Part shown: positions 347 to 1,525 of the stretch, piece by piece
Position numbering within the stretch: the first letter of the stretch is position 1
How the letters are laid out: each line of letters starts with the position of its first letter
Source of the DNA: a virus
IMG/VR virus record: IMGVR_UViG_3300035438_001155
Span: 1 to 16,912 of that record
DNA: 16,912 bases
Direction: 5' to 3' (one strand)
Program-made: the position numbers and the translations under genes
The notes under the pieces: model-generated
What the model was told of the DNA's origin: nothing
The model's database searches: none
The model's input: only the letters and a program-made list of their open reading frames with translations

Positions 347-484
347 GCCCGAATGGCGGAATCGGTAGACGCGACGGTCTCAGAGGCAAGGTATTTTGAT
401 ACCCTTGTTGGGTCACTCCCAATAGCCTAAACAAAAACCGTTTGTTGAAAGACAATGCCAGTTCAAATCTGGCTTCGGGCACCA
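347..484 (+). tRNA. tRNA-Leu (anticodon CAG) interrupted by a 51-nt insert at position 37/38 (insert 385-435); CCA encoded
   Basis: Acceptor gcccgaa (347-353) pairs 7/7 with ttcgggc (474-480). Discriminator A481 and CCA 482-484. Classical Leu D-arm gcgg-aatcggtaga-cgc with G18G19. Anticodon stem acggt (374-378) pairs with accgt (437-441). Loop c-t-CAG-a, then a 51-nt insert after nt 37. Long variable arm ttgt-tgaaag-acaa. T arm gccag-ttcaaat-ctggc. Total 135 nt versus about 85 expected. Confidence 0.85.
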
Positions 485-496
485 AAAATATACCAC

Positions 497-571
497 GGGG
501 GTGTAGTGTAATGGTTAGCACAAAAGATTTTGAATCTTTTAGTCCTCGTTCAAATCGAGGCACCCCTTCCA
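497..571 (+). tRNA. tRNA-Gln (anticodon TTG), CCA encoded
   Basis: Acceptor gggggtg pairs with cacccct (G1-U72 wobble). D stem gtgt/gcac with loop aatggtta. Anticodon stem aaaga/tcttt, loop tt-TTG-aa. T arm cctcg-ttcaaat-cgagg. Discriminator T568 and CCA 569-571. Confidence 0.85.
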
Positions 572-598
572 ATTCTTTGCAGTATTATGTTACTGTGA

Positions 599-1273
599 TC
601 ATTCATACAACTTCCGCAGGTCTCTTACTTTGTATGTTTCGCGAACATACTTGATGTAGACTTGTATGTCTATCTTATCCACTACCATAACATTGGGACA
701 TTGATCCTTTTTGGCTTGAGCTCTCTTGCTCATAAATCCCTTGATTTCAATTTCCACACCTTCCACTACAAAATCAGGACGATATTTGTGTTTTTTGTTC
801 TTGTAGGTGTAATCATACACAGAAGTTGATCTAGCAATCTCAATATTATGATCCAAATGCCAAATCACAAAGGCTAGTTCATATGTACTATCACAATGAA
901 ATCCTTTGTATTTGCCCTTGTGTCCTCCTCCATGTTTTTCTTGTTTGAGTGCATTTTCTGTTGCTCTTTGTTTGAAACAGATTCTCGAACAGGTAACTCT
1001 AGCTGCCGAGAATGATTTAGAACAAATGGGGCAAATCTTAATTATATCTTTTTTAGATCCAAATTTTTTTCCACGGTTGGGAGATGGCAATCCTTTATTG
1101 TGGCTAGGTCTTCCTTTCAATTTTGATTTAATTTTGTCTTTTACTTCTTGTGAATGTATTCTCGCATTGGCGCATTTTCTGCTACAGAATTTCTTGGCAC
1201 CATATTTGGAATAGGGATCAAAACTATTGCCACACTTGGGGCAGATAGAATAAATATCAGTTACGCTGGACAT
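599..1273 (-). CDS. free-standing homing-endonuclease-like protein: two zinc-ribbon repeats plus a C-terminal PD-(D/E)xK nuclease motif
   Basis: ATG at 1273 (reverse complement) preceded by AAAGGAAG. Two repeats of the type CPxCGxxF…CSRxC. C-terminal region …GFHCDSTYELAFVIWHLDHNIEIARS…YRPDFVVEGVEIEIKG, with PD…E-x-K. Confidence 0.7.
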   Translation of the reverse strand: MSSVTDIYSICPKCGNSFDPYSKYGAKKFCSRKCANARIHSQEVKDKIKSKLKGRPSHNKGLPSPNRGKKFGSKKDIIKICPICSKSFSAARVTCSRICFKQRATENALKQEKHGGGHKGKYKGFHCDSTYELAFVIWHLDHNIEIARSTSVYDYTYKNKKHKYRPDFVVEGVEIEIKGFMSKRAQAKKDQCPNVMVVDKIDIQVYIKYVRETYKVRDLRKLYE

Positions 1274-1340
1274 GATCTTCCTTTCTTGTCTAGAGCGGAT
1301 GGATGTTGGCGCATCGTGATCCGTACCTATATTTATACAG

Positions 1341-1369
1341 TTGACTAAACTATGATACTATATTACTAT
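1341..1369 (+). promoter_or_regulatory. sigma70-type promoter for the second tRNA-Leu, divergent from the minus-strand nuclease gene
   Basis: TTGACT (1341-1346), 17-nt spacer, TACTAT (1364-1369). tRNA starts at 1386. Confidence 0.6.
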
Positions 1370-1385
1370 GAAGATAGTAGAGTTT

Positions 1386-1525
1386 GCCCCCGTGTCGGAA
1401 TCGGTAGACGACGCGGACTTAGGGACAAGAGCAACAGGTGCTCATATCAGTTCAATCCTGATAGTCCAACAGAAATCCGCTGGCCTGGAAAGGCTGTGCC
1501 CGTTCAAATCGGGCCGGGGGCACCA
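1386..1525 (+). tRNA. tRNA-Leu (anticodon TAG) interrupted by a 51-nt insert at 37/38 (insert 1424-1474); CCA encoded
   Basis: Acceptor gcccccg pairs 7/7 with cgggggc (1515-1521). A1522 and CCA 1523-1525. D arm tcg-gaatcggtaga-cga. Anticodon stem gcgga (1413-1417) pairs with tccgc (1476-1480). Loop c-t-TAG-g, then a 51-nt insert. Variable arm gcct-ggaa-aggc. T arm gcccg-ttcaaat-cgggc. Confidence 0.85.

Follow-up and report, generated by a model that had tools for sequence, protein, structure and literature searches.

Compact tRNA-like inserts in the anticodon loops of tRNA genes from a huge tailed bacteriophage

Self-splicing group I introns aside, tRNA splicing is not expected of bacteria or of the viruses that infect them. 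The window analysed here, a 16,912-nt stretch of viral DNA (IMG/VR record IMGVR_UViG_3300035438_001155), contains tRNA genes whose anticodon loops are interrupted by short inserts. An earlier note on this DNA had described two of them as tRNA-Leu genes, each split by a 51-nt insert at position 37/38. Interrupted tRNAs in a bacterial or phage context, with no bulge-helix-bulge (BHB) and with inserts too short for group I or group II introns, require an unusual removal mechanism. The locus raises the question of where the inserts lie, what they are and how they might be removed.

Interrupted tRNA genes and their phage context

Both Leu genes (LeuA and LeuB) fold into a full long-arm cloverleaf with an encoded CCA once the 51-nt block is taken out. 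They are invisible to ARAGORN in bacterial mode and are recovered in intron mode, and LeuA matches the Rfam tRNA model with 44.8 bits, its anticodon loop being extended by an insertion of 53 nt. The two genes described earlier are real, but a third, winC, had been missed, and three of the five tRNA genes of the window are interrupted, by inserts of 48 to 51 nt (Table 1).

Table 1. Interrupted tRNA genes, their inserts and neighbouring elements in the window
Feature	Position	Strand	Remarks
Sigma-70-type promoter, LeuA-Gln transcription unit	268..296	+	TTGACA-17-TATATT, 11/12 matches
LeuA, interrupted long-arm tRNA-Leu	347..484	+	CCA encoded; most likely CAA, mature loop CUCAAAA
LeuA insert	383..433	+	51 nt; structure-defined junction, 382-432 equally possible; G + stem AGGC/GCCU (384-387 with 425-428); hairpin 1, 390-403; T-arm-like hairpin 2, 406-424; then A + 4-nt overhang AACA
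tRNA-Gln(UUG), between LeuA and LeuB	497..571	+	Uninterrupted
Free-standing HNH-type homing endonuclease gene, between tRNA-Gln and LeuB	599..1273	-	PHROG HNH endonuclease, 6e-9
Sigma-70-type promoter upstream of LeuB	1341..1369	+	TTGACT-17-TACTAT, 9/12 matches
LeuB, interrupted long-arm tRNA-Leu	1386..1525	+	CCA encoded; most likely UAA, mature loop CUUAAAA
LeuB insert	1422..1472	+	51 nt; structure-defined junction; G + stem GGAC/GUCC (1423-1426 with 1464-1467); hairpin 1, 1429-1443; T-arm-like hairpin 2, 1445-1463, loop UUCAAUC; then A + overhang ACAG
GIY-YIG/NUMOD3 homing endonuclease gene, between LeuB and tRNA-Arg	2145..2987	-	
HNH endonuclease gene directly upstream of winC	9965..10537	-	
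Promoter-like sequence upstream of winC	10558..10586	+	TTGACA-17-TAATAT, read off the sequence by eye
winC, third interrupted tRNA	10602..10726	+	48-nt insert; CCA encoded; architecture as in LeuA and LeuB
winC insert	10637..10684	+	48 nt; G + stem GGGG/CCCC; short hairpin 1; T-arm-like hairpin 2, 10655-10675, loop UUCAACU; then A + overhang AACU

The promoters reported directly upstream of the two Leu genes were found again, and the scanned region holds 17 sigma-70-like sites, compared with 8.3 ± 2.9 in shuffles. The Shine-Dalgarno motifs noted ahead of the neighbouring ORFs are likewise seen in the sequence. Rho-independent terminators had also been described, and none was detected directly after LeuA or LeuB. 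The source of the window is a huge tailed bacteriophage with sigma-70-type promoters and not an archaeal virus, an assignment that is well supported; an archaeal host, one of the options first considered, is at odds with these near-consensus promoters and with relatives that are huge tailed phages.

Contigs of the window type are conserved in at least six independent metagenomes. All contigs carrying the window phage are shorter than 27 kb, and the phage DNA examined amounts to ~20 kb of a genome of probably ~400 kb. When the complete window was compared with annotated phages by megablast, a 42-nt tRNA match was all that emerged, and no such inserts were found in the syntenic regions of the distant megaphage relatives LR756500, LR756501 and LR745206. 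The gene order Leu-Gln-tRNA(UAA) recurs in the relative L306, in which the HNH gene next to tRNA-Gln has no counterpart at the same position, and the segment with the GIY-YIG/NUMOD3 gene is replaced in L002 and L004.

Junction position and anticodon identity

The earlier note had placed the inserts exactly at 37/38 (385-435 and 1424-1474), and removal of 51 nt there does give acceptable tRNAs, with the anticodons CAG (LeuA) and UAG (LeuB). That position is one of several placements permitted by the A-rich 3′ tail, and ARAGORN puts the two inserts at 35/36 and 36/37 instead, with the labels Leu(caa) i(36,51) for LeuA and Leu(taa) i(37,51) for LeuB. No high-identity intron-less allele of LeuA, LeuB or winC was found, and the junctions of the window genes were placed by analogy.

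Allele pairs in relatives locate homologous or analogous inserts inside the anticodon. One tRNA-Lys(UUU) gene is shared, with three exon mismatches, by L261 and L248, of which L248 is intron-less; the 68-nt insert of L261 separates U34 from U35 precisely, opens with a 7-bp acceptor stem and closes with GCCA. Comparison of L282 with L249/L240 places a 49-nt insert with a 7-bp stem and ACCA after U34. In addition, the LeuA slot of L004 is occupied by an intron-less Leu(CAA) allele, the loop of which (CUCAAAA) equals the product predicted for LeuA.

Classification of the tRNA bodies alone, in six informative cases, fits the structure-defined junction and conflicts with 37/38 where the two differ. 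By body, L261 is Lys and not Thr, L139 is Thr and not Pro, and L282, L131b and L296 are short-arm Leu(UAA) and not Thr, Val and Pro; the intron-less tRNAs nearest to the body of LeuB (winB) are Leu(taa). Furthermore, in 10 of 10 members the bases on either side of the insert together restore a canonical 7-nt anticodon loop, and the rebuilt anticodon agrees with the identity of the tRNA body. Codon usage favours CAA, UAA and CAU for the three window genes: among Leu codons UUG is the most frequent, and among Pro codons CCG is the least used (6/143).

By this analysis, the window inserts most likely split the anticodon (34/35 or 35/36) rather than lying at 37/38. With the insert inside the anticodon, the two Leu genes would probably read CAA and UAA, not CAG and UAG as first read. 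LeuA is then most likely Leu(CAA), not Leu(CAG); LeuB Leu(UAA), not Leu(UAG); and winC a CAU tRNA, not Pro(CGG). The identity of winC is weakly supported: it is Pro(CGG) according to ARAGORN versus CAU (Met or Ile2, loop CUCAUAA) under the structure-defined junction, and its body is closest to intron-less tRNA-Met(cat), a weak signal with 54/77 identities to the best Met tRNA. The C4-G69 and C5-G68 pairs and a neighbouring TilS-like gene (6512-7114) may offer a lead towards tRNA-Ile2.

Ordinary archaeal- or eukaryote-type introns at 37/38, cut by EndA/Sen in an archaeal or eukaryotic host, would also leave acceptable tRNAs upon removal, and the introns of Lak megaphages were called with the eukaryotic mode of tRNAscan and placed at 37/38 (PMC6784885). 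For the present genes such an origin is very improbable, given near-consensus sigma-70 promoters ahead of tRNA genes (12/12, 11/12 and 11/12 matches), Shine-Dalgarno sequences, encoded CCA, huge tailed phages as relatives, and allele pairs that put related inserts at 34/35. A script covering all in-loop junction pairs found no BHB (3-4-3) candidate in LeuA or winC and, in LeuB, spurious pairing only, which would break the anticodon stem. No BHB is common to the three genes, in agreement with the earlier attempt to draw one by eye, and the minimum free energy (MFE) folds of the inserts are Y-shaped instead.

Architecture, homology and spread of the inserts

The three window inserts share a layout (Table 1) in which a closing stem that starts with G stacks coaxially on a T-arm-like hairpin, while a single additional hairpin and a brief overhang at the 3′ end complete the unit; this tRNA-like layout is well supported. 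The MFE fold of the LeuA insert has -16.2 kcal/mol (z = -2.0) and that of the LeuB insert -14.6 kcal/mol (z = -3.1), none of 200 shuffles being as stable as the latter. The first nucleotide is G in eight of nine inserts, and the distance from the T-loop to the 3′ end is 15 to 17 nt in all nine (15 nt in LeuA, 16 nt in winC), compared with 16 nt in tRNA. A UUCRA T-loop, with which that of winC agrees, occurs in 6/9 inserts, against a chance of ~0.002 per loop. Together, the acceptor-like stem and T-arm form a stack of 11 to 13 nt, with G at +1 and a 4-nt 3′ overhang.

In larger relatives the acceptor stem measures 7 bp and NCCA is present, whereas the overhangs of the window type are mostly non-CCA (AACA, ACAG and AACU). 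The 68-nt insert of L261 on its own scores 52.2 bits against the Rfam tRNA model (E=3e-11), and the isolated 48- to 51-nt window inserts match no Rfam family, tRNA included. The tRNA-likeness of the window inserts is architectural and depends on the bridging members L282 and L261.

Group I and group II introns are, as had been pointed out, much larger than these inserts, and Rfam scans at gathering or permissive thresholds gave no group I match. A permissive Rfam scan for ribozymes (hammerhead, twister, pistol, hatchet, hairpin and others) across positions 300-1600 and the isolated inserts yielded only noise. A hammerhead-like CUGAUAG...GAAA in LeuB is not kept in LeuA or winC and has no Rfam ribozyme match, and a pseudoknot between the insert tail and the hairpin-1 loop, drawn by eye, works in LeuA only and was dropped.

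LeuA and LeuB inserts had been described as equal in length and unrelated in sequence. The equal length stands, but the two are homologous: they align without gaps at ~27/51 identities (~53%), and a covariance model (CM R1) seeded with LeuB and L131b recovers the LeuA insert with 38.6 bits (E=5e-8 in 1.14 Mb) and L296 at 9e-10. With filters off, the top seven matches of CM R1 are precisely the seven candidate sites, winC being the seventh (E=0.57). MAFFT misregisters the hairpins of divergent inserts, and a CM-based alignment was used instead. In this alignment, which is fitted to the model's own structure, 93.8% of cells are paired, versus 62% in shuffles and 25-46% in slid controls, and 18 of 20 pairs, those of the outer anticodon stem included, show compensatory changes. 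The window inserts are one family of compact nested tRNA-like elements that is present in related huge phages too, a conclusion that is well supported; the search for related phages proposed in the earlier note yielded homologous inserts in, e.g., L131, L306 and L296. The window and its relatives together present a conserved, co-varying RNA family in which the anticodon is most likely split and, in the compact type, the insert ends are the ends of the tRNA-like unit.

The LeuB insert is ~80% identical to that of L131 and ~96% identical to that of L306, and it interrupts a long-arm Leu body in the window, whereas in L131 and L306 the interrupted tRNA(UAA) is of the short-arm kind. Since a near-identical insert occupies the CUUA/AAA site of two different tRNA(UAA) bodies, the element is mobile between tRNA genes, for which the support is good. 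About 10 of ~330 tRNA genes in ~2.7 Mb of related phage DNA bear inserts. In 185,579 cellular species genomes, the conserved core RGTTCAATYCYGATAGWYCA had 11 matches, none of them inside a tRNA gene, and CM support among these was limited to a weak E=0.49 in a Dependentiae SAG contig. An exact-pattern scan of IMG/VR with the Leu D-loop plus the insert start returned nothing. A loose pattern, with the insert 3′ end joined to the T-loop, matched 120 loci, mostly random, in which ARAGORN intron-mode calls were neighbouring tRNAs fused together, the exception being L030, a Lak-type Tyr intron.

Mobility between tRNA genes, the patchy distribution, the existence of intron-less alleles and the three homing endonuclease genes close by would all suit selfish DNA insertions (tRNA-derived and MITE- or SINE-like) that disrupt genes and leave decaying pseudogenes. 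Decay is decidedly improbable in view of the flawless cloverleaf and strong promoter of each of the three interrupted genes among the five of the window, of exons that stayed intact while the LeuA and LeuB inserts diverged to ~53% identity, of co-varying outer stems, and of contigs conserved across independent metagenomes. In the reading favoured here, in contrast, the element itself is probably selfish, and it would persist because it is spliced.

The insert might also never be removed, the chimeric RNA itself being the product, a tRNA scaffold that displays a small structured RNA. As a decoy, such an RNA could divert host defence nucleases that target tRNAs, or proteins that bind them; alternatively, RNase P could free a mini tRNA-like RNA from it. 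The stable, conserved and covarying insert folds accord with this, as does the presence among the interrupted genes of tRNA-Lys(UUU), a classic target of anticodon nucleases, and a decoy role had been suggested in the earlier note. The rebuilt 7-nt loop, the anticodon that suits the body, the outer anticodon stem kept by compensatory changes and the intron-less alleles that are ordinary tRNAs are, however, expected only if a mature tRNA is made, which renders an unspliced product improbable.

Relation to known introns and a possible route of removal

The full novelty implied at first is tempered by Devoto et al. 2019 (Nat Microbiol, PMC6784885), who described 'enigmatic' tRNA introns in Lak megaphages, with no mechanism given; one of these introns 'may itself encode a tRNA' (PMC6784885), and megaphage tRNA introns are mentioned in PMC8346664 and PMC13037316 too. 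The window inserts are a compact variant of these already reported, unexplained introns. Both are short, non-group-I inserts in the anticodon loop of huge-phage tRNA genes for which intron-less alleles exist, and both contain a tRNA-like unit, with its acceptor stem stacked on the T-arm, that stops 2-4 nt short of the 3′ exon, the distance from T-loop to 3′ junction being 15-16 nt in Lak introns and 15-17 nt in inserts of the window type. In contrast, Lak introns are longer (79-114 nt versus 48-51 nt), and window inserts have a shortened closing stem (4-5 pairs), one extra arm only and a position probably inside the anticodon. Lak introns also have an extra 5′ hairpin and an A-rich spacer, which set their 5′ junction apart from the tRNA-like 5′ end, whereas the window inserts lack both and open directly with the closing stem. 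The phage clades differ as well, with a GC content of ~46% in the window versus 26% in Lak, and the window has standard promoters. Its inserts are to date the smallest and cleanest of the megaphage type, and 17 kb contain three of them, each in a gene that has a promoter to itself.

Group I introns are known from bacterial tRNAs, including cyanobacterial tRNA-Leu(UAA), Azoarcus tRNA-Ile and those of Patescibacteria (PMC13011429). Like the present inserts, they interrupt bacterial-type anticodon loops, notably of tRNA-Leu(UAA), and are mobile and patchy, but they measure ~200 nt or longer with a P1-P9 core, compared with 48-68 nt here. Archaeal and eukaryotic tRNA introns have a BHB, are cut by the EndA/Sen endonuclease and are joined by the RtcB or Trl1 ligase. 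Like the window inserts, they are short and sit in the anticodon loop; they are spliced by proteins, and in the window too an RNA ligase would have to join the exons. The phage enzymes Rnl1/Pnkp are homologous to modules of fungal Trl1. The window genes differ in having no BHB, a junction probably at 34/35 or 35/36 and a bacterial expression context, and no EndA/Sen domain was found among the window ORFs (~20 kb of probably ~400 kb). RNase P acts on a minimal substrate of a ~12-bp coaxial acceptor/T-arm stack with a T-loop. Its tandem pre-tRNA substrates, as in the phage T4 tRNA cluster, lie one after another, whereas here the tRNA-like unit is nested in the outer anticodon, so that its excision breaks the outer tRNA and religation is needed.

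Because the insert begins where the tRNA-like unit has its 5′ end and stops at the position-76-equivalent 3′ end, we propose excision by end processing. The reading as a whole, in which anticodon-splitting tRNA-like inserts are excised by tRNA end-processing enzymes and the exons then ligated, we put at slightly less than an even chance. The tRNA end-processing machinery would recognise the insert in the transcript, and RNase P would cut the 5′ junction, leaving a 3′-OH on the 5′ exon; a nuclease that measures from the T-loop would cut the 3′ junction, leaving a 5′-phosphate on the 3′ exon; and an ATP-dependent Rnl-type RNA ligase would seal the nick in the anticodon loop, giving a functional tRNA without the insert. 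We infer splicing itself, and likewise the role of RNase P at the 5′ junction, which nuclease acts at the 3′ junction, and the ligase. In bacteria, RNase Z normally cleaves behind N73 and not after position 76, so that no known enzyme obviously suits the 3′ cut. An Rnl2-family ligase gene is present in a relative with 65% identity. No ligase gene was found in the window, and tblastn with the L133 ligase over 4.2 Mb (±10 kb around one marker gene) returned L133 only. Rnl1, Rnl2, RtcB and end-healing enzymes are common in jumbo phages (PMC7824862).

Taken to its full extent, this route would be a third kind of tRNA splicing, carried out in huge phages by RNase P, a T-loop-measuring nuclease and a phage Rnl-type ligase, a possible but doubtful proposal. 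If true, tRNA splicing in bacteria could depend on proteins and ribonucleoproteins and be unrelated to BHB/EndA and to self-splicing introns, and the element would spread among tRNA genes with a common anticodon-loop sequence. With the features of the insert family, the oddity of megaphage tRNA introns becomes a concrete biochemical hypothesis, RNase P plus ligase, that is suited to in vitro transcripts.

Other members of the group fit direct RNase P cleavage less well. Lak-type introns have a hairpin and a spacer of ~25-30 nt between the 5′ junction and the tRNA-like 5′ end, and L207 carries the tRNA-like unit on a stalk; RNase P would therefore be unable to cut the 5′ junction in those types. 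The inserts as a whole may instead be true introns excised by a dedicated phage endonuclease, for which the acceptor/T-arm minihelix is a binding handle only. The ends would then possibly be 2′,3′-cyclic phosphate and 5′-OH, joined by RtcB or by Pnkp plus Rnl, as in T4 tRNA repair. The minihelix occurs in every insert type, Lak-type introns and L207 included, and a junction geometry that varies by type is easier to reconcile with a handle than with direct cleavage by RNase P. Furthermore, known anticodon nucleases attack the 34/35-35/36 region, where the inserts probably lie and where phage ligases repair the damage. Ligases of this kind are described in PMC7824862, and many window ORFs have no assigned function. 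On the other hand, no candidate nuclease or ligase was found among the window ORFs, and a handle alone does not require that compact-type junctions equal the tRNA-like ends or that eight of nine inserts start with G; we consider a dedicated endonuclease unlikely, though to be taken seriously.

The genes also pose a problem for annotation. Standard annotation overlooks them, and eukaryotic- or intron-mode tools give wrong anticodons (Pro, Val and Thr for Met/Ile, Leu and Lys), which skews studies of the tRNA repertoires of phages and of codon reassignment.

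Interrupted tRNA genes and the position of the inserts

In default bacterial mode, ARAGORN called only tRNA-Gln and tRNA-Arg in the window. Its intron search recovered both interrupted Leu genes (LeuA and LeuB) proposed in an earlier note and a third gene missing from that list (winC), which has a 48-nt insert and the same architecture. The existence of two interrupted Leu genes with encoded CCA was further confirmed by a match of positions 347-481 to the Rfam tRNA model (44.8 bits), obtained only when 53 nt in the anticodon loop were skipped, and by minimum-free-energy (MFE) folds of the full 138- and 140-nt stretches, which gave complete long-arm cloverleaves with encoded CCA. 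ARAGORN intron mode called winC Pro(CGG), while its body is nearest tRNA-Met/Ile(CAU). The same mode often merges two neighboring tRNA genes into one tRNA with a tRNA-encoding intron (L016, L105, L124, and L129). Reports in surveys of jumbo-phage tRNA introns that “could encode another tRNA” (PMC13037316) may therefore be partly an ARAGORN fusion artifact, although true nested cases exist, e.g., in locus L261.

Features of the window and short-arm tRNAs of related loci
Feature	Position	Strand	Details
Sigma-70-like promoter	268-296		11/12 matches
LeuA, interrupted tRNA-Leu	347-484		insert 383-433 (CUCA-insert-AAA); anticodon most likely CAA (junction rule)
tRNA-Gln, uninterrupted	497-571		ARAGORN bacterial mode
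HNH-type homing endonuclease	599-1273		free-standing
Sigma-70-like promoter	1341-1369		9/12 matches
LeuB (winB), interrupted tRNA-Leu	1386-1525		insert 1422-1472 (CUUA-insert-AAA); anticodon most likely UAA (junction rule)
GIY-YIG homing endonuclease	2145-2987		free-standing
Sigma-70-like promoter	3066-3093		12/12 matches
tRNA-Arg, uninterrupted	3117-3194		ARAGORN bacterial mode
TilS-like PP-loop protein	6512-7114	+	200 aa; N-terminal domain only
MVP-like protein	7155-9644	+	829 aa; MVP shoulder and vault repeat domains
HNH homing endonuclease	9965-10537		free-standing
winC promoter	upstream of 10602-10726		own promoter, TTGACA-17-TAATAT
winC, interrupted tRNA	10602-10726		insert 10637-10684 (CUC-insert-AUAA); anticodon most likely CAU (junction rule)
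PTH2-like peptidyl-tRNA hydrolase	12184-12651	-	
Tail fiber	window ORF		S74 chaperone domain
Saccharopine-dehydrogenase-like enzyme	window ORF		
Short-arm Leu-anticodon tRNAs	L135 3830-3906; L249 4541-4617; L240 105-181; L131 15566-15642; L108 165-241; others		

The insert junction is ambiguous because of an A-rich tail. Removal of 51 nt at 37/38, the canonical intron position at the core of the earlier argument, yields anticodons CAG and UAG, whereas removal two positions upstream yields CAA and UAA (the latter being ARAGORN's own call). Both product sets pass as normal tRNAs, and comparative data were therefore needed to place the junction. Further interrupted tRNAs were collected from ~2.7 Mb around homologues of the MVP-like protein, used as a clade marker. 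L248 and L261 (also L265, L270, and L273) share a tRNA-Lys(UUU) gene whose exons differ at three positions; it is intron-less in L248 and split in L261 by a 68-nt insert placed precisely between U34 and U35. Similarly, comparison of L282 with L249/L240 puts U34 of a short-arm tRNA(UAA) immediately before a 49-nt insert. Bodies were also classified by comparison with 455 distinct intron-less phage tRNAs after masking of the anticodon loop. The L261 body is nearest Lys(UUU), that of L139 nearest Thr(UGU), and those of L282, L131b (the interrupted tRNA of L131), and L296 nearest short-arm Leu(UAA), whereas 37/38 junctions would give Thr, Pro, Thr, Val, and Pro, respectively. LeuB is nearest Leu(UAA) and winC, weakly, nearest Met(CAU). 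A single junction rule, in which the insert runs from the nucleotide immediately 5' of the closing stem through the fifth nucleotide 3' of it, recovers all body-based identities and canonical 7-nt loops.

Three independent hints agree with the anticodons that this rule gives in the window. Locus L004, with flanks ~99.6% identical to the window, carries in the LeuA slot (149-231) an intron-less tRNA-Leu(CAA) with the loop CUCAAAA. In window genes, UUG is the commonest Leu codon (102/297) and CCG the rarest Pro codon (6/143). Leu(UAA), Leu(CAA), Gln(UUG), Arg(UCU), and a CAU tRNA together are a repertoire typical of phages. The 37/38 placement in the window genes is probably wrong, as judged by analogy with the allele pairs (34/35) and with body identities that contradict 37/38. 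The inserts most likely split the anticodons of tRNA-Leu(CAA), tRNA-Leu(UAA), and a CAU tRNA, with CAA and UAA favored over CAG and UAG.

Conservation and architecture of the inserts

The inserts are a conserved RNA family and not, as first described, unrelated in sequence. Those of LeuA and LeuB align without gaps at ~27/51 identities (~53%), and the differences are compensatory pairs. A covariance model (R1) seeded with the LeuB insert and its closest relative, from locus L131, detected the LeuA (E=5e-8) and L296 (E=9e-10) inserts in 1.14 Mb and gave no matches in another 1.6 Mb from phages less closely related. With filters off, the top seven matches in 83 kb were exactly the seven candidate sites, among them L139 (E=0.006), L282 (0.097), and winC (0.57). 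In the model-based alignment, which had been fitted to R1's own structure, 93.8% of cells were paired, versus 62% in column shuffles and 25-46% in slid registers, and both sides had changed in 18 of 20 pairs, among them four of the five outer anticodon-stem pairs. A weak match (E=0.49) with the exact core GGTTCAATCCTGATAGACCA occurs in a 12.9-kb “Candidatus Dependentiae” single-cell contig (L315 6490-6569, minus strand); it could be a diverged insert or chance, and the contig is possibly viral.

In MFE folds of the pre-tRNAs, the extra 51 nt of LeuA and LeuB form the same Y-shaped module, in which a short stem closes off two hairpins and is followed by an A-rich single-stranded tail. No bulge-helix-bulge common to LeuA, LeuB, and winC was found, in line with the earlier inspection by eye. 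The 48-51-nt window inserts alone matched no Rfam family (tRNA, group I, or any small ribozyme), and the earlier exclusion of group I introns, based on size, stands.

Under the junction rule, the inserts look like miniature tRNAs. The L261 insert opens with an acceptor stem of 7 bp (GAUGAAA/UUUCAUC), has D-like, truncated anticodon, and T arms, and finishes with G-CCA; alone it matches the Rfam tRNA model at 52.2 bits (E=3e-11; gathering threshold, 29). The L282 insert (49 nt) carries ACCA after its 7-bp stem. Window-type inserts have a closing stem of 4-5 pairs, often opened by a G.A pair, one additional hairpin, and a second hairpin stacked directly on the closing stem. The first nucleotide is G in 8/9 inserts, and the second-hairpin loop fits the T-loop consensus UUCRA in 6/9 (chance, ~1/512 per loop). 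The distance from this loop to the insert 3' end is 15-17 nt in all nine, compared with 16 (positions 61-76) in a real tRNA. The T-like stem is longer as the closing stem is shorter, so the coaxial stack stays constant at ~11-13 nt. A possible tRNA in L207 (4788-4952), a candidate only, with a body lacking a clear nearest neighbor, has an ~85-nt insert with a mini acceptor/T-arm unit (loop UUCAACU) atop a long stalk helix.

Probable excision of the inserts and its possible route

We infer that the inserts are spliced out, because the flanks always restore a canonical loop with a body-matching anticodon, the outer stems covary, a strong promoter accompanies every interrupted gene, and exons are flawless despite divergence of the LeuA and LeuB inserts to ~53% identity. 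In compact types, the two junctions fall where the tRNA-like unit has its 5' end and its position-76-equivalent 3' end, which led to a more speculative proposal: RNase P would cut the 5' junction, a nuclease measuring from the T-loop would cut the 3' junction, and an Rnl-type ligase would seal the anticodon-loop nick. Rnl-type ligases are common in jumbo phages (PMC7824862), and a relative with 65% identity carries one of the Rnl2 family. Against this route, no ligase gene was found within the window, most insert 3' overhangs are other than CCA, and the 5' junctions of L207 and of the introns of Lak megaphages are not a tRNA-like 5' end. RNase Z, moreover, normally cuts after N73. Excision by a dedicated phage nuclease for which the minihelix serves as a handle is therefore a rival to be taken seriously. 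Because the design is tRNA-like, the splicing mechanism can be tested directly.

Genomic context, mobility, and relation to Lak-type introns

The ORF content of the window is what a large tailed phage typically carries. The MVP-like protein, a homologue of the eukaryotic major vault protein (MVP), shares 37% identity with proteins of the “uncultured phage” genomes LR756500 and LR756501 (462-735 kb) and is conserved among huge phages, with thousands of homologues (6315 database proteins at E<=1e-20), many on 300-570-kb contigs. Near-identical copies of the window were recovered from at least six independent metagenome assemblies. Together, these features indicate a bacterial host. The bacterial signals reported earlier were upheld for sigma-70-like promoters (17 sites in the region versus 8.3 +/- 2.9 in shuffles), AAGGAG-type ribosome-binding sites upstream of ORFs, and encoded CCA; no terminator was detected directly 3' of LeuA or LeuB. 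Promoters, ribosome-binding sites, and huge-tailed-phage relatives leave the suggested archaeal host unsupported. TilS-like and PTH2-like genes are interspersed with the tRNA genes, the former product being 43% identical to a “tRNA(Ile)-lysidine synthetase” of Pseudomonas jumbo phage PA5oct; its presence would make sense if winC were tRNA-Ile2(CAU). In an 82%-identity relative, a release-factor-like protein (PCRF/RF-1 domains; L130 4141-4845) adjoins the saccharopine-dehydrogenase-like gene, which hints at translation-termination tinkering in this clade.

A search of related phages showed that inserts recur but patchily (~10 in ~330 tRNAs). The LeuB-type insert occurs in L131 (~80% identity) and L306 (~96%) within a short-arm tRNA(UAA) body and in the window within a long-arm tRNA-Leu, always at the identical site, CUUA/AAA. 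L306 has the window's gene order (Leu(CAA) with insert, Gln, tRNA(UAA) with insert) and lacks the HNH gene that parts Gln from LeuB in the window. Free-standing homing endonuclease genes flank all three interrupted window genes. This fits a selfish element moving among tRNA genes with similar anticodon arms.

Nearby, the LeuA gene is wholly replaced in L004 by its ~70%-identical intron-less allele, the GIY-YIG segment (2123-3055) is wholly replaced in L002/L004 between ~99.6%-identical flanks, and both loci lack tRNA-Arg. This replacement mosaicism looks localized and is possibly endonuclease driven. Many huge-phage tRNAs with Leu anticodons (UAA and CAA) are only 74-77 nt, without the long variable arm defining bacterial tRNA-Leu, and share the D arm CCCAAnnGGCAGAGG, a G1.U72 pair, and A73.

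The phenomenon of interrupted phage tRNAs was already known from the “enigmatic” introns of Lak megaphages, one of which “may itself encode a tRNA” and for which no mechanism was put forward (Devoto et al. 2019; PMC6784885), an account echoed in later papers. Lak introns (Table S6 of that study) are built along related yet distinct lines: a 5' hairpin leads through an A-rich spacer to a tRNA-like unit, which has a 7-bp acceptor and a UUCG-type T-loop and stops 2-3 nt ahead of the 3' exon. Their T-loop lies 15-16 nt from the 3' junction, compared with 15-17 nt in the window-type family. The window inserts are real but, rather than canonical 37/38 introns in a bacterial context, are a compact new variant of these unexplained megaphage tRNA introns. 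No description of the compact 48-51-nt class, or of its intra-anticodon position, family-level conservation, and tRNA-like ends, was found in the searchable literature. Lak-type introns also occur outside published Lak genomes: a tRNA-Tyr(GUA) on a 99-kb IMG/VR contig (L030 3925-4065, minus strand) contains one that shares its ACAGAGUAAACUGU 5' hairpin with the tRNA-Phe intron of Lak and in which a CUACAUAG/CUAUGUAG acceptor stacks on a UUCGAUU T-arm.
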